DNA from: Candidatus Omnitrophota bacterium
Lineage (GTDB): Bacteria; Omnitrophota; Gorgyraeia; 2-02-FULL-51-18
Length of the DNA stretch: 64,000 nucleotides
Direction: 5' to 3'
NCBI GenBank assembly: GCA_945877765.1
Contig: CAMDWQ010000001.1
Location: 86,253-150,252, forward strand
Shown: piece by piece, positions 2,823-56,420 of the stretch
Numbering within the stretch: position 1 is the first letter of the stretch
Layout of the letters: every line of letters starts with the position of its first letter
Position numbers and translations under genes: made by a program
Notes under the pieces: model-generated
What the model was told of the DNA's origin: nothing
The model's input: only the letters and a program-made list of their open reading frames with translations
The model's database searches: none

Positions 2823-2848
2823 TAGAGCCCTCTACATCATTCCTACCT

Positions 2849-2938
2849 GTCATTCCCTATGTCATTCCCGAAAGTTTTAATCGGGAATCAAACCTGCACA
2901 TGATCCCCGATAAGAGATCTCGGGGATGACACTGTGGG
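2849..2938. repeat. Foldback (MITE/RPE-like) repeat copy
   Basis: Near-identical to the 2402-2480 unit: gtcattcccgaaagttttaatcgggaatcaaacct...atgatccccgataagagatctcggggatgacactgtggg. Confidence 0.8.
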
Positions 2939-2953
2939 TACTAGTAGAGACAT

Positions 2954-5218: not shown

Positions 5219-5423
5219 TTTTTTACCTTTCGATGAATAAAATTCTTGTGAGAACAATGGTGGTTATTATATCACGCCCCGCCATCCCGAGCGAGCATAG
5301 CGAGGAGGAAGTAGCTCCCGCGAGCGTCGTAGGTTTGCAGCTTGTGTGATCAATAGACACTATAAATTTGACTAAAATTGCCCCACCAAAATTGCTTAAA
5401 TTTGATTTTTGACATTCTCCATA

Positions 5424-33900: not shown

Positions 33901-36900
33901 GGGGATCGGTTTTTCAATCCTGGCGCAGTCACGCTAACCGATGCCAGTCCAGAAGCCGTGCTCGCGGTCAAACAGAGAGTGTTTGACCGGTTTAGAGACG
34001 AAAAAATATTTAATAAAAACTCTGAGCTTGAAGAATTTTCTGATGCTTTCACCAAGGCATTTTTCTATCACGACATGGCTTTTGTGATGCGTTATCTTAG
34101 CTTTGCTTTTGTGGGCACGGCGGTGGTTAATGTTATGTCGACGCTTGAGCCGCGGTGGGGGGTATTTGCCAAGACGCAGTCTTTCTCGATTGGTTTTAAC
34201 AGTGAGGGTGTTCTAGGAGCCGCCGAGCCCGAAGCGGTGACGGTACCCCTCATGCAAGATGGGGATTCAACGGCGCGGCAGATGTTTGTCCCCGATGGCT
34301 ACTACGGGACGATTGAGCAGGACCCCAGGGCGAACAATCTAATTCGTTTGCATGCCCCTTTGGTTGAATTTGACGATCTCTACCAGAGGCCAGCACCTTT
34401 ATCCGAAGGAGAGTTACACCTTTTTCCTGTCATTGGCAACCCCAAAATTGAAGTCGCCTCGGGAGATATTCGCCAGCTGGCCAGTGTGGAAAATAAAAAT
34501 GCCATCGAGGACATTCCTTCGGTGCTTAAGCGCGTGCGCGAATCGGTATTGCCCGGCGGCCGCAATCGAAAAGCACTCGATCATTTAAAAGCGCTCATCA
34601 CACGACAGGCCCAGGAGTGGATTTCGGATGAGGAGACGCTGATAGCCAAACATGCCCAAGAAGGCCGGGTGCACGAAGCTCATAAGGGAGGAAACTACAA
34701 TCTTGTTTTGTATGGCTCTGATTTTAATCTCGATCTGATTCGCCGTGTCGCCGACCAGATGCATGGCGGTATGATGGATTTGAACGTGGCTGTCATGGAT
34801 TCGGGAGAGCTTGTAGAGCTTTTTAAGAAAAAAGCCGCCGGCCGTGAAGTGCCTATCGGACCCAACACGATATTTCTAGCGGTCAGTAACTCGGGTCAGA
34901 CGCAGGCGGTCAAAGCCGCTCATAGCGAAATAGTCAAAATGCAGGAGAGGGGCCAGCTCAGAGAGGGAAACAATCTTGTTTTGACGCAGAAACTTTTCAA
35001 CGCGCTTAGCTCGGAAGGGGGCCAGGGCTATCAGCTTGAGGATGAGGTTTTGCCTTATACGTTTCTTAACCTAAGCCACATCCGTCCAGACGGTAGTATT
35101 ACCCGACGCAATTCCGAAGCAGCCAGCGTGACCACGGCGGCGACGGAGGCTGTGCTGACTGAAATGATGATCGGTGCTTACCAGGCCGTGAATGATTTGG
35201 CGCACAACTCTGCGCAGAATCCACAACAGCTAAGACCCTATAGACTCGCCAAAGATTTAACCAGCGAAGATTTTTTGGCTTTCCGTGAATTCCAGCTAGC
35301 TCACTATGAACAACAGGCGGCCAATCGCATCGGTGTCGATTCCGAAGGTCAGCCCATCACGGATTCGCCCGACCAGAAGGCACTCGGTCTGGAAGTTGAG
35401 TACCGCACTCAGTCGGTGACCGAATGGATCAAGGGATTTATGATATTCAATCTTGGCTACATCGCTTTGATTGCGTGTGTGTTGCAACTTCCTCTTTTCG
35501 GAACGGCACTGGGAAGCATTTTCAACGCCCGTTTTGACGGTGCTCTTGATGCAGTTTTCTACTTATCAGGTTTTTGGCTGACGGTGGTTTTGATTCGCTG
35601 GTGGGAGGGGCGTCCCTTGTGGGATCGTATCTTGCCTCGCGTGGAAATATTCGCCGATCACGTGGGTTATTCGAGAATCATCGAAAGATTCAATGTGGCG
35701 CTTCTTGCCAACGCGCAGGGTTTCTTGAGTCCGCTTTTTTATTCGGCGAATGTGGTGCGCGATGTATTGCACCGCTATTCGATTCGTGGCTGGCGCGGCG
35801 TCTTGTTTTATATTTATAGTCCCGACGAAACCATGGGTTTAAAAGAAGCCGGGGATGCGGACTCCGCTGGCATGGTGGCTAGCCAAGTGCGTTTTAACAC
35901 GTTCAATGCCGGCGGCCCGCACACGCATAAAATTCTTCTACAAAATTCTGCGTACAACCGTGGCATGTCCAAAAAAAGCGGTCACCAAGATGTGGGCCTG
36001 TCAGACGTTACCGATGAATTGAAGAGGAAATATAGCGGCAAAATATCCGAGACGATGCAACACTTAATCAACCGCCGCTTGGGGGATCTAAGCAATTATC
36101 TGATTCCGGAAATCGTGATCGGCTACCGGCGCGCGGTTAATCTCTCGCGTTTTTTTAATCATGTGCTGGACGAAATTTTCCTAAGCTCTCTTGTGGGTAA
36201 GTGGCCGGCTTCCGTGGTACGAAAAACTTTGGTGCTTGTGGGTTTTGGATGGTTTCACGAGACGTTTCCTATCGGCGAAAGCTCAGGACGCGCGGGGATT
36301 CTTTCTACCTCTCACCCGGTGAACTCAAGCCTTCCAGGTGAAGACTCCGCCCGGATGTTGACTCGACGGGAAGCTGCTCAACAAAACCGTAAAAAAGTTT
36401 TAAGTGAGCTTGTCAGTGCTGGCGCCAAGGAAATGGAGCAGTCTCAGATTTTGGAAGAGATAGAAGCTGAGGCCATTGTAATCCAAAAAGTAGCTGAGCG
36501 TACCTATCAGAGAGAAATTGCAGAGGCGGAAGAAGTTTTTGCAAATAAGGTGAGGACGATAGAGGAGCATTTAACTAACGCAAAAGCTTTGACAAATAAT
36601 CCTCTTATAGACGATTCTTTCTCCCCAAGTCTTGATGCGAGAGCGGATCGTGCTCGCGAAGCGGCAGTGGCAGTGAGGGAAGCCACGATGGAACAAGCGG
36701 GAAAAAGAAGAGAAGCGGCGTCAGAAAATGCAATTTTGGACGCGGCTTCACCCAAAATCAAGGCGCTGAAAGCTAACCGGCATTTGCCTGTCCCGGGGAA
36801 TCCGGATCGTATCGAGCTTAGCCAGACATTTGACGTGGTGCAGGCCGATGGGGGCATGGATGTCTATTTTCCTGGTGGAAAAAGAATCTCATTTAGTCTT

Positions 36901-39900
36901 GCGCCCGGCGGCCAATATTATCAAGGCGACAACTCACACCCTTCGGTGAAAGCGGTACGGCAGGTATACAAGGGACAACCAATGCTCGTTATTAGTGGAG
37001 ATCTTTCTTCGGTATGGAAAGAGCATAATCCTGAATATGATCTTGTGCTTCCTCTCGTCGACCAGGGTTCTGCTACCGGAGCTCGTCTGAGTAGCGGCGC
37101 TTTTCTTATCAAAAAAGGCATGCTTTTAGACCCAACCGAATTGGTAAGACCGCAAGAGGTAATCCCAAATGAAGTGTCGGGCAAAGCATATCTAGTCAAA
37201 AGATCCCCCGATGCTGTCGTCGCGGAGTCTTCGATCCGTCCATTCACAAGCGAGCCTTCTGCCGCGTTAAAGAGTGTCATTGCTAAACGTAAAGCATGGT
37301 TTTCAGAAGGAGCGCTCCGTTTATTAGGGATATCATTTCTCTCCGTTGTCATCTGGATTTTTGTGGATATGAACAGCCGCTCAACTAGAAAATCGTTAAG
37401 CACTTCAGCGCATGAAAATAATCCTCCGGCTGCCGCGGCTCTGGAAGAAAAGCCTTTAGTGCCAGAGTCTTCCCCGGTCGTCCCCTCGATAAACCAGGTG
37501 CAGGTTGTGGCAGGGGAGCACTTAAGAAAGGACTTGGCATCCGTGCTAGAAAAATCAAAATCGGAAGAAGAGAAAGCCGAGGAGCTAAAAGCCGCAAAAG
37601 AAATAGCCGAGACGGAACTGGCTTTGCTGGAGCAAGAAAAAAAACAAACTCAAGATGAGCTTGCGATTGTCTTTGCCAAAGAGCAAGTGGCAGAAGAAGA
37701 AAAAAATTCTGCTAGCCATGCACTGGAGGCGGCAAACACCCAGCGCGAACTATTCATCAAGCAAGCCTCACTCGTGGATCAGGAGATAGCGGCCATGGAC
37801 GAGGCGCAATTGCAGAAAGGTGCGGATGTACCGGTTAGTATCAAATCAGAAAGAAAAAAATTGTCGGCCGCCGATCTTGATCGGGCCGCAAGATCTACAG
37901 AGGAAGTTTTGAAATTCCAACCCGCTTTAAGTCCTTATACAAAAGAGCTTCTGTCTAACGGTGTGCTTCACAAGATCAATGAGAAATGGTCTTTTAAGCG
38001 ATTTGAAAGTCCTCAAAGAACCACTTGGTGGCCGTTGACCGAGCAACATCTTGAAGGCGTTAAAACACTTGAGCAGCATTGGAGAGATTCACGTCAAACG
38101 CTGACCGATGCTGGAGTCAACCGCAAGGAAAATGGCGAGTTTTGGGTCTCGGTAGATGGCACCAATTTCAAAATGCCCTTATTGGGAACCGATTTAGTAG
38201 GCATTTATTATCCCCAGAATAAAACAAAAGGTCAGCCTCAACTTTATTTTGTACAACTGGGCCGTGCGGCTTCTGCGAAAATCACACAACAAATCGCTAC
38301 CGAGAATTCTTTGGCGAGAATCGAGGCTGAAAAGAAAGCCCAGGAAGCTATCGAGAGTCACCGTCTTTTAATCGAGAAGAAAGCAGCGATTGATGTTCAA
38401 CATTTAGTGGTCGAGCAATCGATCAAGAGTTTTGGTGAGGAGATTCAAACAGCGGACGAAAAATGGCTAGGATTGAAAAACAAAGAGACCGAGCTCCAGC
38501 GGCTGATTCATTCTATTCAGATCGAAGAAGGTCGGGAAAAGCTGTTACAGCTTACTCACGAGGAAGAGAAGTCGCGTTCCGATGCCGATGAGTTGAAGAC
38601 TCAAGCGAAAAACCTCCAGCGGCAATTAGACGAAGCCCAAAAAAATATTCAATCAACAGAAAAGCCGAACACCTCAGAGACAACGCCGCCCGCCACTGCT
38701 TCGGTTTCGGAGCTTGCACCGCTTTTCAAAAAAGCTCTACAGGCTGATAATTTTATTCAATTCAGAGATCTTGAAAATAAATTTCTGGAACGCCTAGCCA
38801 AACTAAAACGAGGCGACAAAGACAAATTTTCTAAAGATGTCTTGGTGCTGCGCCAATTTCGCCAGTGGCACCTGTCCGTGAAGCGGATTAATGAGGCGAA
38901 GGCCCGAGCAAAAAATGCGGCAGCCACCGGTGATCTTGCGGCTTATCGCCGGGCACTCGGGCAATTTTATAATCACTTGGAAGTTTTGCGCGGTGTCGAA
39001 GAAAAGCTCCCGCCCGGACACCACTTTGTTAACTTCGACAAGGCGGCCAATAGCATTGTTTCGGCGGGAAAAGTATTTGGGGGTCGTAGTCCCGCGTCAC
39101 AGAAAATTGCCCGTCAAATTTTATCGCTTGCCGTCGCATCGACGGCGTCGGGAGGCCGTCTTGCGGCATCTTTTTCAACGGTAAACAACAGGAAATTTAA
39201 TCTTCTATTTCTGGTACCGCCGGGGGTCAGTGTCCAACAATTCTCGCGCCAAAATATCGATTTTAGAACCAGTCTTGGTCCAGCGGCATCGCGATTTAGC
39301 ACGCGCTACGCGCCAACGAGTGTTTATACCGAGCGTTTTCTCCGAGATAAAAATTACCCCGTGGATGCTATTTTGGACAGCACCTCGTCAACGCCTGAAA
39401 GTACTTTGCTACTTTTGACCAAACTTGCCGAAACGGATGCGCGGACGTTTTCAACACTCTATCCTTTCGTACAGCGTCTTCTGGCTCGTCCGGAAAATAT
39501 TTCTCGCTTGTCTTGGGCGGAGGAAGCGCTTCTGGCGGTGTGGGTTGAACAAACTCTACCCAATCCTGCTCCAAGGAGAACATTTGTCTCATCGGGACGT
39601 CTAGTCGCTCAACCTGAAATATTAACCAATCAAGCCGAGCAGGGCGGGCATTCTTCAGAAGTGCTTGCCTCGATACTGGATCAGGCGATGGCTCATACGA
39701 TACTTGCAGAAACTAAAGCAGAAAAAAATTCTGCACGGATCGACCTTCAAACGGCAACTGAAAATATTCTTCAATATCTTTCCCCATCATCCGCCGAAGA
39801 CGGAAGACTCGTATTTTCCGGCAAAGCCAATGCTTTGGCGCTTCAACTGGCTTCGACACAGCGCTCGCGCTATGCGCTTGTGGATCCCAGCTATCGCGTG

Positions 39901-40476
39901 GTTATTCCGGACGTTGCAGGCCAAGCGCGTAAAACGATTGTGACAGAGCTGGATGTGTTTGCCAAAGACGGGGCAGGAGTGCCTTGGAGTTACCGCATGG
40001 AGAATTTAGACCGTAAAGTTCCCGGAGTTTTTAATCACGTCTTATGGGTCAACGATTCTTCCATCCGCTCTCTGGCCGAATTGATCCGGCGGTATCCGCA
40101 GGCGGCGATTTTTGGAGACCAGGTGATTTTTGCGCCAAGCGCCAAAACACACAAAGATATTTACCAGGCACGCGGCACCGTCGCCATCGACGGCGAATCT
40201 ATCGTCCTTACGTCTAAGCCCGGCATGCTCGATGAGGGAACTCAGTCCGTTAGCGATGTCAGGCCCGCGATGGTTTTGGCTTTGGATGCGCAGGCAAAAT
40301 CTACCATCCGGTTTATGGAGGCCGGGGCGAGATACTTGCTGAATCATTCAGCATTGCCAGCATACGTATTTCGTCAACCCGACGGAAGCCTTGTTTTCAG
40401 ACTTCCGAATATAGTGCCTCTGGATTATATTCTTGAAAATCAGAGAGCTGCCCGAACCGCTGAAATGTCCGCTTGA
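30907..40476 (+). CDS. giant secreted protein A (3189 aa); conserved N-terminal module shared with B and C, GlmS-like segment, TM hairpins, long coiled-coil region
   Basis: Signal peptide MDEQKK...AVSAFLVVAFLSQDVAYA. Motifs IQDAH, LVEGGSGD and TGGFHS are shared with the two paralogues. HLRWATGGESTWDNAQPH (Ntn amidotransferase-like) and LAVSNSGQTQAVKAA (SIS-like) occur internally. Hydrophobic stretches around aa 1510-1570. E/K/A-rich heptad regions around aa 1850-2550. Confidence 0.8.
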   Translation: MDEQKKFKTQYGNRLKAVSAFLVVAFLSQDVAYAIGGINFNADSAKVASNPITFSNDTAIVRKFSQRSDEMVINIQDAHQKLGAQQSISSILDRLVWQYDLKLIAVEGGSGDVDTSALSSLPDEALRKKTGEHLLKEGLISAAEFYSIVSGNQVRLYGVEEDAVYRENLEVFKKLIDDKKDLRRELTLLQGALRSLEEKIYSPALKELEAKKMKHFRGQMKFAEYWEYFSSLAARLGIALDPYPNLEKISSTVVLEKNINFSAASAERESLIKRLSAELPKLSLEKLIFALLEFKQGKMASGKFYKNLVEMAEAASIEPTAYSNMSTYSRYVSLYEAIDLLAVFDEAERFESKIREALFANLEERNLWVLTHRVGIVSRLLDVTLDSADYEQIKSHKADFQIKKLKEDLFSLGVRHGFSTAGDVDFDRLEKNMPLALRFYELASQRNQILLANTLKKMRREKIQVAALVTGGFHSDGIAKLMEEEKISCLVVMPKFDEKSPDRPYISVLTKKPKEYEQLFKDSDFYLTAEVFFNHFPDYGEDRLAALVASLDRVSGKNHFTSGVVHQRDFVRRWVRGLRARTRDIQNPAVSVKKLNQALRGVSAVRREGDFYRVKVGEREFNVPLDQASREIDGSPIEITAVKAPASFLIETDSRQATAQDVSALVNQFSSKVSVWTMPGSTPRTVRVAVNREVERFERARKVRFTPQQKRSFQTVGARLCGPNLTARLRALPENQQPSIRFQPSKKPSIDVIRSPRQREVVRAQLEIAELRGGQSGGAAIMALDSKTGHVVVVFGKTKKRKRESPSVAVDAAVEKLVLKAANAGIVSLPEYDAEMSHLRWATGGESTWDNAQPHWHEEPKNVAVFGVSRQEHGGLKLGSKIMTVFNIIQHNGDLDYLKKSWLVNGIQQVVTLPFRKAREIYVRLMPRSKSRGTSDSKTIAEDVDFELTQGQVWKSVRYAYGKNFHDNSHQDLPFSEKTINDASAIATRCIEEVGLDLGDRFFNPGAVTLTDASPEAVLAVKQRVFDRFRDEKIFNKNSELEEFSDAFTKAFFYHDMAFVMRYLSFAFVGTAVVNVMSTLEPRWGVFAKTQSFSIGFNSEGVLGAAEPEAVTVPLMQDGDSTARQMFVPDGYYGTIEQDPRANNLIRLHAPLVEFDDLYQRPAPLSEGELHLFPVIGNPKIEVASGDIRQLASVENKNAIEDIPSVLKRVRESVLPGGRNRKALDHLKALITRQAQEWISDEETLIAKHAQEGRVHEAHKGGNYNLVLYGSDFNLDLIRRVADQMHGGMMDLNVAVMDSGELVELFKKKAAGREVPIGPNTIFLAVSNSGQTQAVKAAHSEIVKMQERGQLREGNNLVLTQKLFNALSSEGGQGYQLEDEVLPYTFLNLSHIRPDGSITRRNSEAASVTTAATEAVLTEMMIGAYQAVNDLAHNSAQNPQQLRPYRLAKDLTSEDFLAFREFQLAHYEQQAANRIGVDSEGQPITDSPDQKALGLEVEYRTQSVTEWIKGFMIFNLGYIALIACVLQLPLFGTALGSIFNARFDGALDAVFYLSGFWLTVVLIRWWEGRPLWDRILPRVEIFADHVGYSRIIERFNVALLANAQGFLSPLFYSANVVRDVLHRYSIRGWRGVLFYIYSPDETMGLKEAGDADSAGMVASQVRFNTFNAGGPHTHKILLQNSAYNRGMSKKSGHQDVGLSDVTDELKRKYSGKISETMQHLINRRLGDLSNYLIPEIVIGYRRAVNLSRFFNHVLDEIFLSSLVGKWPASVVRKTLVLVGFGWFHETFPIGESSGRAGILSTSHPVNSSLPGEDSARMLTRREAAQQNRKKVLSELVSAGAKEMEQSQILEEIEAEAIVIQKVAERTYQREIAEAEEVFANKVRTIEEHLTNAKALTNNPLIDDSFSPSLDARADRAREAAVAVREATMEQAGKRREAASENAILDAASPKIKALKANRHLPVPGNPDRIELSQTFDVVQADGGMDVYFPGGKRISFSLAPGGQYYQGDNSHPSVKAVRQVYKGQPMLVISGDLSSVWKEHNPEYDLVLPLVDQGSATGARLSSGAFLIKKGMLLDPTELVRPQEVIPNEVSGKAYLVKRSPDAVVAESSIRPFTSEPSAALKSVIAKRKAWFSEGALRLLGISFLSVVIWIFVDMNSRSTRKSLSTSAHENNPPAAAALEEKPLVPESSPVVPSINQVQVVAGEHLRKDLASVLEKSKSEEEKAEELKAAKEIAETELALLEQEKKQTQDELAIVFAKEQVAEEEKNSASHALEAANTQRELFIKQASLVDQEIAAMDEAQLQKGADVPVSIKSERKKLSAADLDRAARSTEEVLKFQPALSPYTKELLSNGVLHKINEKWSFKRFESPQRTTWWPLTEQHLEGVKTLEQHWRDSRQTLTDAGVNRKENGEFWVSVDGTNFKMPLLGTDLVGIYYPQNKTKGQPQLYFVQLGRAASAKITQQIATENSLARIEAEKKAQEAIESHRLLIEKKAAIDVQHLVVEQSIKSFGEEIQTADEKWLGLKNKETELQRLIHSIQIEEGREKLLQLTHEEEKSRSDADELKTQAKNLQRQLDEAQKNIQSTEKPNTSETTPPATASVSELAPLFKKALQADNFIQFRDLENKFLERLAKLKRGDKDKFSKDVLVLRQFRQWHLSVKRINEAKARAKNAAATGDLAAYRRALGQFYNHLEVLRGVEEKLPPGHHFVNFDKAANSIVSAGKVFGGRSPASQKIARQILSLAVASTASGGRLAASFSTVNNRKFNLLFLVPPGVSVQQFSRQNIDFRTSLGPAASRFSTRYAPTSVYTERFLRDKNYPVDAILDSTSSTPESTLLLLTKLAETDARTFSTLYPFVQRLLARPENISRLSWAEEALLAVWVEQTLPNPAPRRTFVSSGRLVAQPEILTNQAEQGGHSSEVLASILDQAMAHTILAETKAEKNSARIDLQTATENILQYLSPSSAEDGRLVFSGKANALALQLASTQRSRYALVDPSYRVVIPDVAGQARKTIVTELDVFAKDGAGVPWSYRMENLDRKVPGVFNHVLWVNDSSIRSLAELIRRYPQAAIFGDQVIFAPSAKTHKDIYQARGTVAIDGESIVLTSKPGMLDEGTQSVSDVRPAMVLALDAQAKSTIRFMEAGARYLLNHSALPAYVFRQPDGSLVFRLPNIVPLDYILENQRAARTAEMSA

Positions 40477-40519: not shown

Positions 40520-40978
40520 TTAAGGATGGTATTCCTGGACCCACTTTTGAAGTTTAGAATCATGAGGATCGTGCGAGAAATATCCTTTGATAACGAATTT
40601 TTTAAATTCTTCGTAGGGGTCCGTTTTGGAACAGGCTTTGCGAAGATGCTTTTCATCGTTTAGATAGAGGTAAAGGATTGTTTTGGGTTGATTTGAAAAA
40701 CAAAAGAACAGCCGGTATCGTTGCAAACCTTGTTTGTACCGCCGGTATTTTTTAAGCTCACCAGCTAGACGGTATTCAGGTCGGTCAGGATCTCGCGGAA
40801 TAATCTCCTGGTCCGCTTGCCGGATACGATAAGCAAATTTAACCACCTCGTGTCGTTTAAATTCCTCGTCGCTTAAATCACGGCGCAGTTCTTTGACTTG
40901 CTCTTTGAGCTTTTCAATCCTCTGGTAGTAAAATTCGTGGTAGCGGACAAGGTAACTATTTGTCATCAGCCGTGACAC
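40520..40978 (-). CDS. yhaV: type II toxin YhaV family (ribosome-dependent RNase)
   Basis: RYRLFFCFSNQPKTILYLYLNDEKHLRKACSKTDPYEEFKKFVIKGYFSHD aligns with E. coli YhaV RYRLFFRYSEKEKVIILAWMNDENTLRTYGKKTDAYTVFSKMLKRGHPPAD. Confidence 0.8.
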   Translation of the reverse strand: MSRLMTNSYLVRYHEFYYQRIEKLKEQVKELRRDLSDEEFKRHEVVKFAYRIRQADQEIIPRDPDRPEYRLAGELKKYRRYKQGLQRYRLFFCFSNQPKTILYLYLNDEKHLRKACSKTDPYEEFKKFVIKGYFSHDPHDSKLQKWVQEYHP

Positions 40979-41252
40979 CTTTAAGAAGCTCGTCCCATTC
41001 TTTACTCCAAACTTCTTTCGCTTGGCGAAGTTTTTCTGGGTGCTTCATGGCATCGGCCGCCAATGCTTGAATGAAGGTTGCAAAGAGAGGTTCGGACTCC
41101 ATCGTATCAAGTTCTGTTTTGTGGGAAATACTGATTTTTTGACCAACAACTTCCAAAATTACGTCATGACTTTTTGTCTGTCTAGCAAAACCAATGGGAA
41201 TATCTACGGCGTAGCTTCCGCCGTGTTTGAATAATTTCTTAAGTAGAATCAT
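40956..41252 (-). CDS. AbrB/SpoVT-type antitoxin (PrlF-like), partner of the YhaV-like toxin
   Basis: KHGGSYAVDIPIGFARQ is a SpoVT/AbrB swapped-hairpin motif. Start placed at the internal ATG at 41252, which has aaggag 8 nt upstream. Overlaps the toxin start. Confidence 0.65.
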   Translation of the reverse strand: MILLKKLFKHGGSYAVDIPIGFARQTKSHDVILEVVGQKISISHKTELDTMESEPLFATFIQALAADAMKHPEKLRQAKEVWSKEWDELLKGVTADDK

Positions 41253-41298: not shown

Positions 41299-44200
41299 AT
41301 GTCAATCGTTGAAAAATTTGCTTTTTACCTGTTTATCAGCCATATTTTATGCATAGTTAAGCAATCTTATGTATGGGGTTCACTAGGCTATAAACAAGGG
41401 GATTTTGTATTGAATAATCGTAGTCTTTTAATAAGACATATCTCATTGGTGCTAATCGCGACTTTTTTGTGCCAAGAGTTGTCTTACTCAGCACCTGCTA
41501 TTCTGACACCAGCCGCACTTAGCGATTCCGTGGCTTCCTTTCAAGCCCCCACTGAGTTTTGTTCCCTGAAAGAATTTCACCAGGGGCAGGTAGGCAAACC
41601 CTTGATCATTCATATCCAGGATGCCCACTCCAATCTTTCCGGCCAGGAAAATCTCGCTAAGACCCTGGATCAAATCATGACCAAGTACAGTGTCTCCACT
41701 GTGCTCGTCGAGGGCGGTGGCACTGACGGCACGCTGGATCCTCTCAAGCAACTAGCGTCCCCTGAAATCATCCGGCGTATCGCCAAAAAGTTACTCATCG
41801 AAGGCAAGCTTGCAGGCGAGGAATATCTAAATCTGACTTCGGATCACCCAATGAAGATTCAGGGAATCGAAGACATGACCCTCTACAAAAAAAGCGTTGA
41901 AAACTATGCGAAGCTCGCCGATAGACGTGAGGCGATACAGGACTATCTGTCGGTTATTGAAAGATCTGCCGAGAAACTAAAGCGTAAATTATACCCCCAA
42001 GAGCTAATTTCCTACGAAGCGCAAAAGCAAAAGGACACGGATGGAGCTCTGGGATTTAAGTTCAAAGAACTTTTGAGCCTGGCAAAATTAAAAGAGGTGG
42101 AGATCACCAATTTCCCCAACCTTCAAAAACTGTCAGCTCTCGAGGAAAAGGAAAAGAGCATTGATTTCAATCTTGCGAATTTGGAACAGGCGGCGTTGAT
42201 GGAAAAAATCAACACAACGTCATCCCCGAAATCTTTAATCGGGGATCAAACCAAGTATGATTCCCGATTAAAACTCTCGGGAATGACGGTAGATCAATTT
42301 ACCTTCTTTCGTAACATTTTAAATATCGCCAAAGAAAAGAACATTGCCACTGAAGAATATCCCAACCTTCTGCGTTATTTTAATTATTTAAAAGACTTCA
42401 CCGATTTAGATCTGGAAGAAGTCCTAAATGAGTTTGAGCATCTAGAGGATAAAGTCTACGTAGCATGGCTCCCTAAAGAGGACTCGCGCCTTCTTCGCGC
42501 CATTGACCGCTACCTCGCCCTCTTAAAAATTGCTTACCGCATCCAGATGTCCACCAAGGATTTTGAATTCTTTAAAGCCAACGAGCCTGATTTTTCTACT
42601 GCGTCTTATCAGGCATTTTTGAACCGAAAATTAATAGAGCTTGGGTATTTTGAGGATGTGATTCCGTATAAGAATATCTTGGAAGAAGGCAAAAAAGCGT
42701 TGGAGGATTTTTATGATTCGGTGAGCCAGAGAGACCTTGCGTTTATTCAAAACACGAAACGGATATTGGGAGATTCTGTCATCCCCGCGAAAGCGGGGAT
42801 CCGTTCATCACTCGGTGCAGATTCCCGCTTTCGCGGGAATGACAACGCTAACATAGCTGTCCTCATCACTGGCGGTTACCACACGTCTCACTTGAAAAAA
42901 CTTTTTCAACAAGAAGGTTTCTCCTATGTAGTTCTGACACCGATCGTGACCGCCGAGACCAACCAGAAAAAATATGAAAATCTCCTTCTCTCAAGTGTTC
43001 GGAAGGAATCTAAAACAATCGAGGTCGTGCAGGGAGAATCCAAGCAAAATAAAACCTCAGTTCAATTGGATGTAGATTTATTAAAGATTGCAAAAAAAGA
43101 GGGTGCGCGTTTTGCGGGGGCGGTGATGACGCCTGCGAGGCTTGCTCAGACGTTGGAATCGTTCGGAGGATTAAATGACAGAGCGCTTAATACAATTCAA
43201 AAGGAATTCGCGGCAAGACTCGCGAACAACATCTCCGAAGAGACAAAAACTCCGGCGGCGACGCGGTTGGCGAATGAGCCAATCGCATCCTCAAACAACC
43301 CCTCTAGGTTGGGCTTGGTAGCTTTAACTTTAAATCTCAGGGTGGCGCTGTGGAAGCTTTCCTTGTACAGCGGATTTTCATTTGGACGTCTGCAGACGTT
43401 TTCATGGTTGGAAAAAAACGATCAGGGGTATTCGAATAGCTATTGGTTGTCGCCTCGGAAAACCGCGACATGGCAGGGAAAACAGGTCATCCCAAATTCC
43501 CGTTTAAGAAAATCCGGAATTCAACTCCATACTTTAGCCCTGACGCTTCTTGATCTTATGGACCAGGGGTTGTCCGATCCTTTGAAAGAGGAACTATTTC
43601 GTTTACTGGAAAAATCCGTTGCGCAACATAATCTATTGGCGCAATCAGAACATGATCCCGGAGCCAAGATGTCTTTACCGCTTCTACTTGTCAGAGCAAC
43701 GAGTGTCTTAATCAGGCCGGATAGTAATTATGTTCGATTGTCGCGCGCCATGATGCAAGCACCGAAGCGCTTTTTAAAGCCCATAGCCATTCTTCAGCTT
43801 AGAGCTAAGCAGATCCATCTCAACTTTATTTATTTATCGCCCGACATAGTGGATTTTTACGCTAGCCATGAGGCTATAAAATTTATTCTTGAGCCCGAAA
43901 ACATAGAAGACCCAAAACTTAAAAGCGCACTCATTGGATTTTTGGCAGGTGTTTTTAAAAAAAAGACTTGGCAGGACCTAGCGAAGATGGTGGAGGAATA
44001 TGGTTTGGGAGAGTTTGATGTTAACTCTGACGATTCCAAAGCGATGTTTGATGATTTTAAGACTCTCCTAAAAAAGCATGATATCCAGATGGTGAATTGG
44101 ATGAAAAGCCAAGCGTTGTCGACGGGATTGGAAAGAATCGGGGTTCAGTTTCTTCCCTATCTTGAGTTGTCGCGGCTTCTCACATCGCATTCGGAAAATT

Positions 44201-47200
44201 TAGAATCTTTATTGTTGGATCCGCAGAGCGCTTCAAATCAATCATTTTTTTTAAAAATATCCAAGGATGTCACTTTTGGTCTAGAGCCCAGCGCCCGGAA
44301 TATTGTTGAGGGCATTTACATTCAAGAGGACATAGATGTTGACCAATACTATCAAGACGTTTCCAACAACTTCATGACTTTCGAAAATGTCGGCGCGCGG
44401 TCGGCGAATAGTTTAAGCGACCAGATTAATTCTATACAGATTGATCAAGCTTTAGAAGATCAGGCTGGGCTGATTCGTGATGTCTTGCAAAAAGCCATGA
44501 CCAATCTTTTTGAGGTTGACTCTCCGGAGTATTTACGCGTTCTTGAAAGCCTGAAAAAACTAAGGTTTATGCGAGCGTATCAAAAGCGCGGTCATGAAGG
44601 TGCCAGCAGCCACTATGTGCCTAATTATATTTCTTTGATGTCATTCGCCGATGAACATACGATTATTCATGAATTCGGCCATCACCTAACCTATGCTTTA
44701 AAATTAAATGATCCAGTATCTGTGATGGGAAATATCACCGAAGCTGTTTATGATGCGGGAGAAAATCAACGTGATCCTACACATTTCCAAATCGGGGCAA
44801 AGTTTGTCGATGATTTTTCAGCGGAAAAAATTACCGACCCCGAATTCAAACTGCAAATAATGCGGCTTTGGAGTGAACGCGAATATAGGGAGGGGCCTAT
44901 GGGTGATATCAAGGAAGCATATACCTCGGCAACTATTCTCGCGGGCATTCTCTATGAACTAAATGGCAGAGATAAGAGAAAAGCTATGAATGCCGCTATT
45001 CACCTTTCTAAAGAAGACTGGTTCACGAGAGCGCTTGCCGTGGATCGCAAGCTTGAATTTTTTAAAAATTTGGCGAGTCTTGGATTAATCGCCCCGCTTG
45101 CGATGGGATCCTACAGAGCTGCATTTGTTGCCTATCGAGCGACGAATTCGGTTTTATATGGAGCCCTTGCTTTTATGGTGCCCATTATTTCTGTGCTGCC
45201 TTTTTTATTTTATTTAGGCCCAAAACTTTTTACTTACTGGGAAAACAAATTTTTTCAATCCATTGATTGGGGGCCTCCTTTTGTTGTGAACGCTAAAACA
45301 AAAGCGACTTTGTTGCAGGCCGAGGGACCAGAGAATGTGGGGGCGCGGTTGGCAGTTAGAGATGAGTTGGCTGGTGAAATCTCTCGCGGTGAATGGGATT
45401 TATTTGAGAGGCGCTTCGAAGCTTATGACAGGGACACATTACTTAGTTTGCTTACAACCTTAAGCCAAATGGCTCACGATTCAAATAAGAATGTGACGAC
45501 TGAGATTTCTGGGGATGCCGCGAGAAGAATATTTGGGATTCTGTCGGATTCATATCTAATTGAGTATTACCAGGATCCCTTCATCATGGCTTGGTATACG
45601 ACTCTTGCCCAATCCCTGATGGTTTTGATGCCTGACCAGGGTGACGAGAATACTATACTCGCGCGAAAAACACACGAGGAAACCACAGAGATGGTTCTGA
45701 TATCTGTGCTTGCTCATGTCAAATTTTCAGATCTATTGAATAGGCTGGTTTCTGATTTTGAGCCTGTCCGCCACCGTCGAGTTGTCCAGGCATTGTTCAG
45801 CAAATTTGAAAGTGAAGATGAGAGCGCAGAGGATATCGTGAGGGTTTTGCAGGATGATTTCACAGGTGGCCATATGTTCCGGCTATTTTTATTTATTTGG
45901 CAACATTTTGACCAGCCATTTGCCCAAAGCGTCGCAAGGCTTTTGAGGAAATTAAATAGGTATTTAAAGCTTATAGGTCAAAGTGAGGCGATGTTGTTGG
46001 ACGCGCAGATTGAAATTTTTAGAAGCGCTCTGTTTTCTGATAATGTAGCTGAGAGAAAAATTGCGATCGCCTTCTTTAGTGAGTTCATCCAAGGGGGTGT
46101 CACCGATACGCCTGAATTTGTAAATCGCTTGAAGAAATTGTACTGGAGCGTGGCGGAAAGTCTTGATATTTACGATCAGAGTACGGCGTCATATATTCGG
46201 AATATATTATTTTCCCAAACACATTCAATTGATGCCGCCGACTTAAAGGAGCTGGACGCTGATAGACTTGATCACCACCGTTTGGAATATCGAGATCAAG
46301 GGGTTATCGACATGGTTTTATATCATCTCTATGACTCTTTTGGTTTCGACATTCGAAGAAAGGAAATACGCGAGCAAATCATTGCCAATACCTATTTTTC
46401 GGACATCCTTGATATCGTTCTGACCAATCTTTCCGACGACGATTCCCCTTTTGCCGCCAATTTTAACTATGCAACTAAACTACTGGCCCTTAGAGAGCTT
46501 TTTGGTTCTCGAGGTGAAGGTATGACCCCGACTGGAGCCCAGGAGATGATTATCGACATCGTAGTGGATATCACGGCGGAGAGGATGGATGATGCCGCGC
46601 GGCTTGCCTCGCTAAACATTCCCTCCGGCTGGAAAAGATGGGCGCCGGCTGGGGCGGTGGTGATGGGACTTATTTTTTCGTCGAAGGGTAATACCCTTTC
46701 ACAAGTTAATCAACAGCCTGCGTCAGCGGTTGCTCATGATGGAGTCGGGGCGCCTGAGGTAAACAGCCTTAAGCAAATATTCAAAGTTGCTGGTGGCCCT
46801 ATGAAGAGCGCAAATGAATCTGATATCCTCAACATCGACAATGAATCGGTTCAATTGATCACCCGGTGGTATGTGGGGATGCACGGAAACACGCAGGGTC
46901 CAGCCTCTGTTATGATACAGACCAAACACGCGCTTATTACCTTTGTCCATGAGGAGGGAGATCCGGAGATTCAGTTTCGCGATGTGGCTAATACAGCGGA
47001 GATTCTTGGACGCATTCCTCTTTCTGTGGACATGCTAAATGCCGCTAAAACTGCCAATGAAGAGGCGAAGGCGCTTCCTACCGAACAAGTTATGAACGTT
47101 GAGGCCGAAGCTCTCGCGGCCGCGGTTAAGACAAGAAGTATTAATCACCTGGTGGTTAAGCGCCTATTTCCTTGGATACTCAAAAATATTTTAGAGGATC

Positions 47201-47784
47201 AGCAGGTGGTGATTTTCCAGGCAATTGACCGTGATCGTATCAGTCAAGATCCGATCGCCAAGGCGCAAATGGACCTTATCGAAGCGACGATCAAATCCAT
47301 CCAAAATTTGCTTGGCGAAGAAAAGAAAAAATTCGTTCATTTTGTATTTACGGATCCAAAGGGAGTTGCACAATCAGATGTATCTAGATTTAACTCCAAA
47401 GAATTTAGAAAGATTTATGTCGCCCAGCCAAACACAGATGTTCTCCATCAGGCTTATCTTGCGCAAGCAGGATTTTTTGCGTTACCGGACCTGTCCAAGG
47501 GAGATGGTGTTGTTCCACTACAAGCCTTGTATTCGGGAGCGCTTGGTGTGGCTTTGTCAGAAACAATGACCGATCCGCTAGCCTGGAGCCTGAATAAATT
47601 AATTCGTCCGGACTCTTCGTCAACACTGGATCCTCAAAAAGACTACCCAAGACTCAAACAAGTGACTAACGAGAAGGATAGAGATTACTTTGGGAATCTT
47701 ATGATCAGGCCGCTTGCTATCAATATTCAGGCATACCTCACCGCCGCTCGCTTGGCCATCCAGTATGTGGAGAGCGCGGCTTAA
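41299..47784 (+). CDS. giant secreted protein B (2161 aa); shared N-terminal module, HEFGHH zincin motif, two in-frame foldback-repeat insertions
   Basis: N-terminal signal-like LIRHISLVLIATFLCQELSYSA. The real start is possibly the TTG at 41410. Motifs IHIQDAHSN, LVEGGGTDG and ITGGYHTSHL. HEFGHH at 44668-44685. Hydrophobic hairpin around 45080-45240. Confidence 0.8.
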   Translation: MSIVEKFAFYLFISHILCIVKQSYVWGSLGYKQGDFVLNNRSLLIRHISLVLIATFLCQELSYSAPAILTPAALSDSVASFQAPTEFCSLKEFHQGQVGKPLIIHIQDAHSNLSGQENLAKTLDQIMTKYSVSTVLVEGGGTDGTLDPLKQLASPEIIRRIAKKLLIEGKLAGEEYLNLTSDHPMKIQGIEDMTLYKKSVENYAKLADRREAIQDYLSVIERSAEKLKRKLYPQELISYEAQKQKDTDGALGFKFKELLSLAKLKEVEITNFPNLQKLSALEEKEKSIDFNLANLEQAALMEKINTTSSPKSLIGDQTKYDSRLKLSGMTVDQFTFFRNILNIAKEKNIATEEYPNLLRYFNYLKDFTDLDLEEVLNEFEHLEDKVYVAWLPKEDSRLLRAIDRYLALLKIAYRIQMSTKDFEFFKANEPDFSTASYQAFLNRKLIELGYFEDVIPYKNILEEGKKALEDFYDSVSQRDLAFIQNTKRILGDSVIPAKAGIRSSLGADSRFRGNDNANIAVLITGGYHTSHLKKLFQQEGFSYVVLTPIVTAETNQKKYENLLLSSVRKESKTIEVVQGESKQNKTSVQLDVDLLKIAKKEGARFAGAVMTPARLAQTLESFGGLNDRALNTIQKEFAARLANNISEETKTPAATRLANEPIASSNNPSRLGLVALTLNLRVALWKLSLYSGFSFGRLQTFSWLEKNDQGYSNSYWLSPRKTATWQGKQVIPNSRLRKSGIQLHTLALTLLDLMDQGLSDPLKEELFRLLEKSVAQHNLLAQSEHDPGAKMSLPLLLVRATSVLIRPDSNYVRLSRAMMQAPKRFLKPIAILQLRAKQIHLNFIYLSPDIVDFYASHEAIKFILEPENIEDPKLKSALIGFLAGVFKKKTWQDLAKMVEEYGLGEFDVNSDDSKAMFDDFKTLLKKHDIQMVNWMKSQALSTGLERIGVQFLPYLELSRLLTSHSENLESLLLDPQSASNQSFFLKISKDVTFGLEPSARNIVEGIYIQEDIDVDQYYQDVSNNFMTFENVGARSANSLSDQINSIQIDQALEDQAGLIRDVLQKAMTNLFEVDSPEYLRVLESLKKLRFMRAYQKRGHEGASSHYVPNYISLMSFADEHTIIHEFGHHLTYALKLNDPVSVMGNITEAVYDAGENQRDPTHFQIGAKFVDDFSAEKITDPEFKLQIMRLWSEREYREGPMGDIKEAYTSATILAGILYELNGRDKRKAMNAAIHLSKEDWFTRALAVDRKLEFFKNLASLGLIAPLAMGSYRAAFVAYRATNSVLYGALAFMVPIISVLPFLFYLGPKLFTYWENKFFQSIDWGPPFVVNAKTKATLLQAEGPENVGARLAVRDELAGEISRGEWDLFERRFEAYDRDTLLSLLTTLSQMAHDSNKNVTTEISGDAARRIFGILSDSYLIEYYQDPFIMAWYTTLAQSLMVLMPDQGDENTILARKTHEETTEMVLISVLAHVKFSDLLNRLVSDFEPVRHRRVVQALFSKFESEDESAEDIVRVLQDDFTGGHMFRLFLFIWQHFDQPFAQSVARLLRKLNRYLKLIGQSEAMLLDAQIEIFRSALFSDNVAERKIAIAFFSEFIQGGVTDTPEFVNRLKKLYWSVAESLDIYDQSTASYIRNILFSQTHSIDAADLKELDADRLDHHRLEYRDQGVIDMVLYHLYDSFGFDIRRKEIREQIIANTYFSDILDIVLTNLSDDDSPFAANFNYATKLLALRELFGSRGEGMTPTGAQEMIIDIVVDITAERMDDAARLASLNIPSGWKRWAPAGAVVMGLIFSSKGNTLSQVNQQPASAVAHDGVGAPEVNSLKQIFKVAGGPMKSANESDILNIDNESVQLITRWYVGMHGNTQGPASVMIQTKHALITFVHEEGDPEIQFRDVANTAEILGRIPLSVDMLNAAKTANEEAKALPTEQVMNVEAEALAAAVKTRSINHLVVKRLFPWILKNILEDQQVVIFQAIDRDRISQDPIAKAQMDLIEATIKSIQNLLGEEKKKFVHFVFTDPKGVAQSDVSRFNSKEFRKIYVAQPNTDVLHQAYLAQAGFFALPDLSKGDGVVPLQALYSGALGVALSETMTDPLAWSLNKLIRPDSSSTLDPQKDYPRLKQVTNEKDRDYFGNLMIRPLAINIQAYLTAARLAIQYVESAA
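42219..42286. repeat. Foldback (MITE/RPE-like) repeat copy embedded in-frame in giant gene B
   Basis: gtcatccccgaaatctttaatcggggatcaaaccaagtatgattcccgattaaaactctcgggaatgac. Translated in the gene frame as SSPKSLIGDQTKYDSRLKLSGMT. Confidence 0.8.
42778..42843. repeat. Variant foldback repeat copy embedded in-frame in giant gene B
   Basis: gtcatccccgcgaaagcggggatccgttcatcactcggtgcagattcccgctttcgcgggaatgac (two GAAA/TTTC-looped hairpins). Translated as VIPAKAGIRSSLGADSRFRGND. Confidence 0.8.
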
Positions 47785-47801
47785 AGATTCTATCATTTTA
47801 A

Positions 47802-47829
47802 GTATGATTCCCGCTTTCGCGGGAATGAC
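47802..47829. repeat. Half-copy of the variant foldback repeat immediately 3' of giant gene B
   Basis: gtatgattcccgctttcgcgggaatgac. It generates the spurious antisense ORF 47620-47868 (TPGVIPAKAGI). Confidence 0.7.
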
Positions 47830-47954
47830 ACCGGGAGTTGTTCGGACTACAACGGACAAGCCGATCAATCAATCACTGAGTAGTTTTACTCAGTCATTGA
47901 GTAATATTGACAACGCGGCAGTAGCCCAAAATTTATTGCATGCCGGGCTATTTT

Positions 47955-48692
47955 CTAGGGAAGACTTCTTTCGATCTCGGTAAGAAGTGTGGATTTAAAA
48001 TTTTTAAGCAACACATGCTGGCCAGTGGGCAAGAATCGCTTAAGTTCGCTTCGTATATCGAGTTTTTGGCGGTCAATCATGGCTAGAAGTTTCGTCTTCA
48101 ATGTTTTATCCTTCGAAAAAGTTTCCTTGAACGCCATGCGGCTTCGCAAGATAAAATAAACGTCGTAGAAATCCCGGGCTTTGGCGCGGGTCAGGCAAGC
48201 TTGAATCTTCTCGGCAACCAATCTCTTTTGGTCAAGATGCACCAACGTGTAAGGCGGCAATAAATCTGAATTGACCAGAGAGGCGACACCGGCATCTTTT
48301 GGCTGGGCTCGAAGAGAAACTTCCACTTGAATGCCGCTTTCGTATTCGTCCGTTTTGAAATGGAAAATGGCAAGATAGCCGCCGGATGTTTTCTTGGATT
48401 CTTCGATATCTGTTTTAATCCCTTCGCTTTCAATCTTTTTCAGGACAGCTTCCATCAGCGATTCAATTCCGGCGATGGAAATTTTTGAACCCGTAAAATC
48501 CAGATCCTCGGAAAATCGGGGACTTCTCCAAACAAGCCGCAACGCGGTTCCTCCTTTGAAAAGAAGAGATTCGGATTTCTTTTCCTGATACAGAAAAGAA
48601 AGAAAAAGGTGCTGGAGGTATTCCCTCACAACGTTATCCATTGTCGTTTGGTAGCGATCCGAAAATTGTTTAAGAGTTTTTGCCTCAATCAT
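47955..48692 (-). CDS. abiEii: AbiEii/AbiGii-family nucleotidyltransferase toxin (DUF1814, type IV TA)
   Basis: LLFKGGTALRLVWRSPRFSEDLDF is the nucleotidyltransferase motif of AbiEii. 245 aa. 4-nt overlap with the upstream AbiEi gene. Confidence 0.85.
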   Translation of the reverse strand: MIEAKTLKQFSDRYQTTMDNVVREYLQHLFLSFLYQEKKSESLLFKGGTALRLVWRSPRFSEDLDFTGSKISIAGIESLMEAVLKKIESEGIKTDIEESKKTSGGYLAIFHFKTDEYESGIQVEVSLRAQPKDAGVASLVNSDLLPPYTLVHLDQKRLVAEKIQACLTRAKARDFYDVYFILRSRMAFKETFSKDKTLKTKLLAMIDRQKLDIRSELKRFLPTGQHVLLKNFKSTLLTEIERSLP

Positions 48693-50868: not shown

Positions 50869-50875
50869 TTTGTCC

Positions 50876-51847
50876 ATGAAAACTATTTTAGTGACGGGTG
50901 GGGCAGGCTACATCGGTTCGGCGATGGTCCATGAATTGATTGCCGAAAAATACAGGGTCGTTGTGCTGGATGATCTTAGCATGGGGCATCGGAGGCTGGT
51001 GCCAAAACAGGCGGAATTTTTCAAAGGCGATTTAAAAAATATTACTGACTGCCGACAGATTTTTAAAAAATATAAAATTACCGCGGTGATGCATTTTGCG
51101 GCGTCGGCTCTAGTGGGTGAGTCGGTTGCCAAGCCTCTTCTTTATTATCAAAATAACACAGCAGCCTGCGTGAATCTTCTTAATGCCATGCAGGAAGCCC
51201 GCGTTCACCAGTTTATTTTTTCATCCACCTGCGCCACTTACGGGGAGCCCAAGACGATTCCGATGCCAGAGTCTCATCCCCAGGATCCGACCAATCCTTA
51301 CGGCCGGTCGAAGCTTATGATTGAGTGGATGTTAAGAGACCTCGCAAAAATCTCCAACTTTTCTTACATTGCCTTGCGGTATTTTAATGCCGCGGGCGCG
51401 CATTCATCGGGGTTGACGGGGGAAATTCACGAACCCGAGGCTCATCTAATCCCCAACATTCTTAAAGCGGTGCGCAACCCCAAAAGAAAATTGGTGATTT
51501 TTGGAGGTGATTTTGACACGCCAGACGGTACTTGTATGCGGGATTATGTGCACATTCAGGATATTACCCACGCGCATTTTTTGGCGCTTAAGGCGCTGGG
51601 GAGGGGCGTGAAGAATGAAGTGTTTAATCTGGGGCTTGGACGGGGGATATCCAATCTTGAGATTTTAAAAATGGCTGAAAAGGTGACGGGTAAAAAAATT
51701 GGCTACAAAATTGGAGCGCGGCGTCCGGGGGATCCCTCTCGGCTGGTGGCTGATAACTCCAAGGCTAAGAAAATACTTGGGTGGACTCCTAAGCGCGGAT
51801 TAGAGGAGATTATTCGGTCGGCGTGGGAGTGGGAGTTATCACTGTAA
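50876..51847 (+). CDS. galE: UDP-glucose 4-epimerase
   Basis: MKTILVTGGAGYIGS, the YGEPK.. region and YxxxK. About 324 aa, GalE family. Confidence 0.9.
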   Translation: MKTILVTGGAGYIGSAMVHELIAEKYRVVVLDDLSMGHRRLVPKQAEFFKGDLKNITDCRQIFKKYKITAVMHFAASALVGESVAKPLLYYQNNTAACVNLLNAMQEARVHQFIFSSTCATYGEPKTIPMPESHPQDPTNPYGRSKLMIEWMLRDLAKISNFSYIALRYFNAAGAHSSGLTGEIHEPEAHLIPNILKAVRNPKRKLVIFGGDFDTPDGTCMRDYVHIQDITHAHFLALKALGRGVKNEVFNLGLGRGISNLEILKMAEKVTGKKIGYKIGARRPGDPSRLVADNSKAKKILGWTPKRGLEEIIRSAWEWELSL

Positions 51848-51851
51848 TTTT

Positions 51852-51872
51852 CCTCCCCTTTCGAAGGGGAGG
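51852..51872 (+). terminator. Perfect palindromic hairpin after galE (cctcccctttcgaaggggagg)
   Basis: Seen directly. It lies 5 nt after the galE stop, in a convergent intergenic region. Confidence 0.45.
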
Positions 51873-51958
51873 TGCCAGAGGCGGAGGGGTTGTAAGGTCT
51901 GTTGTAGGAACTATGTTTGAAGCGCGACGTGTCAACCACCCCGTCGCCTTCGGCGCCA

Positions 51959-51979
51959 CCCCTCCTTCGAAAGGAGGGG
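51959..51979 (-). terminator. Perfect palindromic hairpin after pepF (cccctccttcgaaaggagggg)
   Basis: Seen directly. It lies immediately 3' of the pepF stop on the minus strand. It mirrors the galE hairpin and shares its TCGAA centre. Confidence 0.45.
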
Positions 51980-51982
51980 AAA

Positions 51983-56227: not shown

Positions 56228-56420
56228 GGGGGTCCAAATTTGTAACCCCTTAGCATTTCCGAACGATTAATGAGCGCCCATGTCATCCCCGAAATTTTTA
56301 ATCGGGGATCATGTTAAAGGGACAGTCTATGGATTATTTTAAGTATGATCCCCGATTAAAAATTTCGGGGATGACATTAGGGGGAGTTGTTCGGAGATGC
56401 TAAGGGGTTACCCAAATTTT
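56228..56420. mobile_element. Composite MITE-like element: roughly 33-bp terminal inverted repeats enclosing a perfect foldback copy of the repeat family
   Basis: ggtccaaatttgtaaccccttagcatttccgaac at 56229-56263 is the near-exact reverse complement of gttcggagatgctaaggggttacccaaattt at 56386-56420. The core 56282-56378 is gtcatccccgaaatttttaatcggggat ... atccccgattaaaaatttcggggatgac. The motif gggagttgttcgga is shared with 47827-47840. Confidence 0.7.

Follow-up and report, generated by a model that had tools for sequence, protein, structure and literature searches.

Gene B is an open reading frame (ORF) in a 64,000-nt stretch of a Candidatus Omnitrophota genome (contig CAMDWQ010000001.1, positions 86,253 to 150,252; this whole stretch is referred to as the window). 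It contains two copies of a foldback repeat, and its reading frame stays open through both. The copies are head-head dimers of repetitive extragenic palindromes (REPs) of the CGTC-tagged type. Our preferred reading, to which we give a probability of about 85%, is that they are selfish REP dimers that have been tolerated in gene B, were filtered for frame and for permissive loops, and are passively translated. A second giant gene, A, provides a paralogous domain for comparison. The sequences concerned are as follows.

41299 to 47784, + strand: gene B, ORF encoding 2161 residues; N-terminal hydrophobic segment, ChaN/TraB/EreA-like domain with a large helical insert (about residues 81-570), long C-terminal region
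42218 to 42288, + strand: copy 1, head-head dimer (tags outside) of two CGTC-type REP units with 9-nt loops
Copy 1, left unit: CGTC-ATCCCCGA-AATCTTTAA-TCGGGGAT-CAA
Copy 1, right unit, inverted: CGTC-ATTCCCGA-GAGTTTTAA-TCGGGAAT-CAT
42777 to 42844, + strand: copy 2, two CGTC-1-like REP units, each with a GAAA tetraloop, arranged as a head-head dimer
Copy 2, left unit: TGTC-ATCCCCGC-GAAA-GCGGGGAT-CCG
Copy 2, right unit, inverted: TGTC-ATTCCCGC-GAAA-GCGGGAAT-CTG
30907 to 40476: giant gene A, 3189 residues
30907 to 32436, + strand: N-terminal domain of gene A, paralogue of the B N-domain without the repeat, used as an internal 'empty-site' reference

No stop codon is met across either copy in the translation of the window, and the ORF from 41299 to 47784 holds exactly the two peptides that the first-pass annotation of this DNA had read from it. 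The core of copy 1 (42219-42287) comprises 69 nt, or 23 codons, read as SSPKSLIGDQTKYDSRLKLSGMT. The peptide lies in the context INTT-SSPKSLIGDQTKYDSRLKLSGMT-VDQF and corresponds to B residues 308-330 (nt 42220-42288); its earlier placement at 42219-42286 was off by 1-2 nt. The core of copy 2 (42778-42843; 66 nt, 22 codons), for which the earlier coordinates were exact, is read as VIPAKAGIRSSLGADSRFRGND, B residues 494-515, in the context GDS-VIPAKAGIRSSLGADSRFRGND-NANIAVLITGGYH. Both copies are foldbacks, as had been proposed: the arms of copy 1 are 34 nt long, 82% complementary and 3 nt apart; those of copy 2 are 25 nt long, 92% complementary and 18 nt apart. As RNA, each copy folds into one long hairpin, with -38.1 kcal/mol and z -8.0 for copy 1 and -46.7 kcal/mol and z -9.3 for copy 2 relative to dinucleotide shuffles; none of 200 shuffles folded as well as either copy. 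A role as intrinsic terminator was rejected, as neither hairpin is followed by a T-run. Tryptic peptides expected from the translation at the junctions of the copies include INTTSSPK, SLIGDQTK, LSGMTVDQFTFFR, ILGDSVIPAK and GNDNANIAVLITGGYHTSHLK.

Both copies sit inside the N-terminal ChaN/TraB-like domain of about 500 residues. Homologues of this part of B are found at 45-63% identity in Candidatus Omnitrophota metagenome-assembled genomes (MAGs) and metagenomes, and gene A carries a paralogous N-domain (BLASTP, 24% identity, 529 aligned positions, E 2e-42); on these grounds gene B can be regarded as a real, conserved gene. With nhmmer unit profiles, no copy of the repeat was detected in the 3189-residue gene A or in the other ~1600 residues of B. 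Pfam matched no domain in full-length A or B. The C-terminal region of B has an HEFGHH motif at residue 1124.

An AlphaFold2 model was made of B residues 81-694, with a mean pLDDT (predicted local distance difference test score) of 74.9 and a core above 85-90. Inside the model, pLDDT drops below 50 in just two segments, residues 231-251 and 415-436 in model numbering; they coincide to within one residue with the two repeat peptides. Copy 2 forms a coil between helix 380-413 and strand 439-445, the strand bearing the conserved GGYH motif; copy 1 has a helix of the large helical insert on either side. The copies match low-confidence loops of the model, and the description of the peptides as hydrophilic and structure-free fits both the model and their grand average of hydropathy (-0.78 for copy 1, -0.36 for copy 2). 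Both halves of the fold flank the copies, and a functional domain would therefore require translation through both, which we consider probable.

Insertion at one site, replacement at the other

Opposite copy 2, BLASTP opens a gap of exactly 22 residues in paralogue A, and 11 of the 15 displayed homologues read RILKEE-NQK-VAVLITGGYH with no residues at the site. Removing 42778-42843 from B joins RILGDS directly to NANIAVLITGGYH; this reconstructed empty site is colinear with the homologues and has no duplicated residue. As judged from these alignments, copy 2 is a clean 22-codon insertion. The situation at copy 1 is different. The gap in paralogue A is of 3 residues, and A and all close homologues possess at this position a native segment of about 19-20 residues (KGGKE..L..L.K..QMKNQK). 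This segment is missing from B and the 23-residue repeat peptide sits in its place, a net gain of about 4 residues. Copy 1, on the same comparison, is a replacement and not a net insertion. Its DNA is unmistakably repeat-derived, the left unit differing by 1 nt in 30 from an intergenic unit at 56281, and we therefore propose an insertion combined with loss of the native linker. The claim that both copies had been inserted into B is thus borne out for copy 2 and needs amending for copy 1. A and most homologues lack copy 2, and the copy 1 peptide is absent from the close homologues.

Could the peptides be ancestral and their palindromy coincidental or secondary? Homologues do have a segment of similar length at the copy 1 site. 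However, that segment is unrelated in sequence to the copy 1 peptide, copy 2 is absent from most homologues, and near-identical units turn up both between genes of the window and inside unrelated genes in other MAGs. For the 24-mers of copy 2, three occurrences were counted in the window, with 0.00 expected by chance. We consider this explanation barely credible. The near identity of intragenic and intergenic units indicates instead that the repeat was the source of the peptides, not the other way round.

A second concern is that B is a pseudogene, or that the in-frame insertions are artefacts of a metagenomic mis-join at repeats. The window appears to be of metagenome type in source, repeats are classic sites of mis-assembly and the exact B protein is not on record elsewhere. 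The sequences on both sides of each copy, however, are conserved in one frame at 45-63% identity with homologues and form consecutive, correctly ordered parts of one domain; the ORF is open for 2161 codons, and in-frame copies of the same kind are present in independent assemblies of other organisms. A pseudogene or an artefact is, in our judgement, very improbable.

The copy 1 site has been occupied by REP-derived sequence in three diverged homologues (B, P0009/L083 and L011); in P0009 and L011 its frame or composition is not that of copy 1.

A family of CGTC-tagged REPs

The window contains 12 hairpin units at 6 loci, on which regex and nhmmer scans agree. Neither the regex scan nor the nhmmer unit profiles found decayed extra copies in A, B or elsewhere in the window beyond these 12. 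Four units are in B, one lies just after its stop codon and seven are in other intergenic DNA. The loci outside B are listed here.

2358 to 2472: intergenic cluster made up of a single REP unit and a head-head dimer, all three units with 9-nt loops
2860 to 2931: intergenic head-head REP dimer, 70 nt, stop codons in 5 of 6 frames
47800 to 47830, - strand: single CGTC-1-like REP unit, TGTC-ATTCCCGC-GAAA-GCGGGAAT-CAT, 16-46 nt downstream of the B stop codon
56281 to 56376: intergenic head-head REP dimer, 33-nt arms, 100% complementary, 32-nt spacer, closed in 6 of 6 frames

Read from the tag, every unit consists of C/TGTC, ATYCCCGN, a loop, NCGGGRAT and a C-N-N tail. The tag is CGTC in three units and TGTC in nine. 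A perfect 8-bp stem starting with AT is found in 12 of 12; where position 3 of the stem varies between T and C, the partner arm in every case has the corresponding A or G, from which it follows that the hairpin of the unit, and not the long hairpin of the dimer, has been maintained. The loop is GAAA in three units, including both of copy 2, and 9 nt long (for example AATTTTTAA) in the other nine, including both of copy 1. The short unpaired tail always begins with C (CAA, CAT, CCG or CTG). All five dimers are inverted with their tags outside, and the doublets fold as single long hairpins with z between -5.9 and -11.8. No target-site duplication is present at any of the five, the flanks being TCTA/CTGT, CCTA/CTGT, ACAA/GTAG, ATTC/ACGC and CCCA/TTAG. 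Rfam, run on the whole window at gathering thresholds, matched no family. The two dimers within B, of 69 and 66 nt, contain no stop in the frame that is read; intergenic dimers measure 70 and 94 nt and are closed in 5-6 of the 6 frames. This pattern of frame and length is the one expected if insertions had passed through a purifying filter.

CGTC-tagged REPs have been defined by an unpaired CGTC tag (with TGTC and CCTC variants), an 8-9-bp stem starting A-T, T-A, a loop whose length is 4 nt in family 1 and 5 nt in families 2-4, with families of deviant loops noted, and a 3-nt tail of consensus CCA (Di Nocera et al. 2013, BMC Genomics 14:522, PMC3733652). Dimers with the tags outside predominate and no transposase is known; CGTC-1 comprises dRS3 of Neisseria and RPE-6 of R. 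conorii, and CGTC-4 is RPE-4, where RPE denotes a Rickettsia palindromic element (PMC3733652). The same study found REPs wholly within ORFs, of the CGTC and GTAG types, in several species and phyla; these are mostly dimers or groups encoding 20-30 residues, some genes hold two REPs, and uvr and rec genes are over-represented (PMC3733652).

The elements in the window agree with this description in the tag and in the 8-bp AT-starting stem (12 of 12 units each), in the orientation of all five dimers, in their density (6 loci in 64 kb) and in being mostly extragenic, just 3' of ORFs. The unit at 47800-47830 occupies the usual extragenic position. An intragenic minority likewise occurs as dimers, sometimes two in one gene, and a uvr gene is hit. 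Copy 2 matches CGTC-1 in all features tested, including the 4-nt loop, except the exact tail sequence. The differences are the loops, 9 nt long in 9 of the 12 units, the tails, CAA, CAT, CCG or CTG in place of the CCA consensus, the host, Omnitrophota not being among the phyla covered in PMC3733652, and the intragenic share, about 20-30% of the units sampled here. The elements are best placed in the CGTC-tagged REP superfamily, which includes dRS3 and RPE-4/RPE-6, with copy 1 as a 9-nt-loop variant. Copy 2 also fits ATTCCC-N8-GGGAAT, which we take to be the dRS3 consensus.

RPEs are palindromic repeats found in frame in unrelated genes at positions compatible with the fold and thought to be surface-exposed (Ogata et al. 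2000, Science 290:347; 2002, summarised in PMC10969869). The first-pass annotation had likened the copies in B to RPEs. The likeness extends to in-frame placement in conserved genes at fold-compatible positions, in B and in the genes for IspH, UvrC, alanine dehydrogenase, aminotransferase and SecA described below, and to the REP anatomy of the units, which places them in the superfamily to which PMC3733652 assigns RPE-4 and RPE-6. They differ in being 66-69-bp dimers of a 24-29-nt hairpin, and the link to RPEs is made through the published CGTC-1/CGTC-4 assignment and not by sequence comparison. The further remark that such behaviour is rarely documented elsewhere does not hold: intragenic REP dimers encoding 20-30 residues have been catalogued (PMC3733652) and in-frame fusions of miniature transposable elements with inverted repeats (MITEs), among them ERIC, BOX and QMITE1, have been reviewed (PMC10969869).

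REPINs, which are mobilised by RAYT/TnpA(REP) (Bertels & Rainey 2011; Ton-Hoang et al.), share with the dimers the arrangement of two inverted REP hairpins with a short spacer, folding as one long hairpin, and the lack of a target-site duplication. Their tag, however, is GTAG, and they are accompanied by a single-copy RAYT gene flanked by REPs; with C/TGTC as the tag and no RAYT among the 20 window ORFs scanned, assignment as a strict REPIN was rejected. MITEs (ERIC, BOX, Correia, Coxiella QMITE1; PMC10969869) are also small non-autonomous hairpin repeats that occasionally lie in ORFs and give rise to peptide segments. They have terminal inverted repeats derived from insertion sequences (IS) and target-site duplications, whereas here the arms are themselves REP hairpins and none of the five dimers has a target-site duplication; a classical MITE was rejected on this basis.

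Several further features of the window adjoin the REP loci. An outer inverted repeat (56242-56264 and 56389-56411; 23 nt, 96% complementary) surrounds the dimer at 56281-56376, giving a nested composite foldback of about 170 nt. The motif GAGTTGTTCGGA (47835-47854 and 56384-56400) adjoins the tag end of the REPs at 47830 and 56376. A weaker copy of it (80% identity) at 41085-41104 lies upstream of B, placing the motif on both sides of the gene, which may be chance. An 87-residue ORF (2562-2822, - strand) with a hydrophobic C-terminal half is flanked by the REP clusters at 2358-2472 and 2860-2931; these have the right flank CTGTGGG in common, suggesting a local duplication.

Foldback repeats in relatives and the origin of loop segments

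An exact-pattern scan with the 9-nt-loop unit, using one genome per species, returned 32 loci in Omnitrophota MAGs, two MAGs labelled Planctomycetia, Nitrospirota (including closed chromosomes), Bacteroidota and Thermodesulfobacteriota; 11 of the loci belong to a single Omnitrophota MAG, JACPXL01. In other MAGs, dimers lie in frame within regions that Pfam matches in IspH/LytB, UvrC, alanine dehydrogenase/PNT and class IV aminotransferase; SecA has one in its C-terminal linker. In-frame dimers were also seen in three more homologues of the A/B N-domain. One alanine dehydrogenase/PNT gene of JACPXL01 (L022, 560-864) has two in-frame REP dimers, a parallel to B, and the gene of homologue P0009 has two dimers and an unrelated palindrome. 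By a conservative ORF criterion, units lie deep inside long ORFs in 15 of 73 cases in other genomes and in 4 of 12 in the window. A 30-mer matching the 9-nt-loop REP pattern is present in closed genomes of other phyla, namely two Nitrospirales (L015, OZ244992.1; L016, OZ243124.1) and a Bacteroidota (L019, OY969815.1), and also at L005 and L035. At L016 the REPs form a periodic array, with pairs about 290 nt apart repeating every ~620-780 nt.

A metagenome scan for the B domain gave 80 homologous loci; one with many in-frame stops was dropped, and the remaining 79 were aligned together with B using MAFFT. Lineage-specific insertions of at least 12 residues were then counted. There are 36, spread over B and 22 of the 79 loci, and they are concentrated at three sites, after B residues ~244-267, ~393 and ~494-518. 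Control segments of equal length from the same genes served for comparison: folding is under their 5th percentile for 30 of the 36 insertions, and under their 1st for 22 (Mann-Whitney p 4e-21). The signatures of the inserted peptides point to several unrelated palindromic repeat families: repeats of the GGAGAATGGAAAATGG type give WRMENG...FHSPF and others give EIAS..PRND, TKQS.., LPLTPSLNKEGG or HSERSE, in many of the loci L036-L115 and at the same few sites. In the P0009 gene a palindrome of another family (L001, 7206-7282) would be translated within the B-domain homologue. On these alignments, most of the variation in loop length across the ChaN/TraB-like domain family comes from foldback repeats. 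The copies in B had been suggested as a route by which giant genes gain linkers or loops. The supply of loops is supported by the 30 foldback insertions among the 36, but the route is not specific to giant genes, as housekeeping genes carry the repeat as well.

The clustering of sites raises the question of exaptation, in which selection would keep the hairpins as stable mRNA structures (pausing ribosomes where sub-domains meet, or in RNase processing or stabilisation of the 6.5-kb message) or the peptides as functional linkers. The strong folding of both copies (-38 and -47 kcal/mol) would suit such a role. So would the perfect stems with compensated variation, the recurrence of REP sequence at one site in three diverged homologues and the restriction of family insertions to 3-4 sites; RNA-level roles for REPs have also been considered in the literature. 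Yet clustering is what a filter for permissive loops would be expected to produce, and recent copying from master elements would account for the perfect stems just as well. The presence of unrelated repeat families at each site argues against a sequence-specific function, and most homologues have no insertion at all. We regard exaptation as unlikely, though it is the main rival.

We thus favour tolerated selfish REP dimers. A CGTC-type REP is scattered over this Candidatus Omnitrophota genome, for the most part in intergenic DNA, and two dimers would have landed in the ChaN/TraB-like domain of B at positions tolerating length variation. They presumably persisted because their lengths of 66 and 69 nt are both multiples of three and their frame is free of stops. 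The ribosome would read through, and the protein would gain two segments, 22 and 23 residues long, that are flexible and mildly hydrophilic; copy 2 would lengthen the loop just before the conserved GGYH strand, and copy 1 would substitute for a linker of low conservation within the helical insert. The copies are probably best seen as selfish DNA filtered by purifying selection and not as adaptations, and we assume them to be neutral.

A number of observations weigh against this reading. Transcription and translation of the copies in B are both things we infer from the sequence. The replacement at copy 1 demands an additional deletion event. The recurrence of REPs at that site and the 'fresh' perfect stems could mean target preference or selection, and not pure neutrality. 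The loops of 9 of the 12 units, at 9 nt, fall outside the 4-5 nt range of the described families. The exact protein sequence of B is not on record in public assemblies, and no relative of B above 63% identity was found, so that the empty site at the DNA level is reconstructed and not observed. Finally, a Pfam scan of 20 window ORFs revealed no Y1/RAYT or IS110-type transposase. The same scan did find an IS21 pair and toxin-antitoxin/Abi genes. The repeat presumably moves by a hairpin- or single-strand-based mechanism or by recombination, as debated for REPs.

The phenomenon itself is already known, since 2000 in Rickettsia and since 2013 for REPs across phyla. What is new is the host phylum, Omnitrophota, the 9-nt-loop variant, its occurrence across phyla and the quantification at the level of a protein family. 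Literature searches on the repeat peptides, and on palindromic or REP elements of Omnitrophota, gave no relevant result, and two papers on Omnitrophota giant genes make no mention of palindromic, inverted-repeat, MITE, REPIN, extragenic or hairpin elements. Recurrent strings in predicted metagenome proteins, such as SSPK.LIGDQ...DSRLK.SGMT, VIPAKAGI and RFRGND, can now be explained as repeat-derived; annotators should be aware that such strings can blur alignments, as at the replaced linker of copy 1. The insertions also mark loops that tolerate added sequence in the uncharacterised ChaN/TraB-like domain at the N-terminus of very long Omnitrophota proteins.

Claverie and Ogata reportedly proposed that palindromic repeats contribute to protein evolution. 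The family-wide result could provide a test: most of the loop-length variation in the domain family is foldback DNA at a few sites, and uncultured lineages therefore offer many independent events to analyse. Very tentatively, it may even be mainly through foldback REPs that proteins of Omnitrophota and neighbouring groundwater phyla gain new loop segments, a suggestion we think possible but doubtful. It is based on the fifth to third of sampled units that are intragenic, on the 30 of 36 insertions that are foldback and on their recurrence at the same 3-4 sites. A near-identical 9-nt-loop CGTC REP is common to genomes of Omnitrophota, Nitrospirota, Bacteroidota and Thermodesulfobacteriota. Such sharing would imply either horizontal spread or a conserved mobilising enzyme with some preference for transcribed or coding DNA.

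Other features of the window and of its relatives were noted. The IS21-family element (9872-11963, - strand) encodes an IstA-like transposase, with rve and Mu-transposase C-terminal domains, and an IstB ATPase. A YhaV-like toxin gene (40520-40978, - strand) lies between giant genes A and B, and an AbiEii nucleotidyltransferase toxin gene (47955-48692, - strand) directly follows B. A separate foldback family (51844-51874 and 51957-51987; 31-nt arms, 81% complementary), each arm of which is a hairpin of the CCTCCCC-TTCGAA-GGGGAGG type, is located at 51844-51987 between convergent genes for an epimerase (50870-51847) and an M3 peptidase (51983-53776). In the genome of homologue P0001 the counterpart of B (L002, 236-3945) is broken up into two ORFs that overlap, of 618 and 622 residues, with pseudouridine synthase and aconitase-family genes nearby, as also in the window (505-5257).

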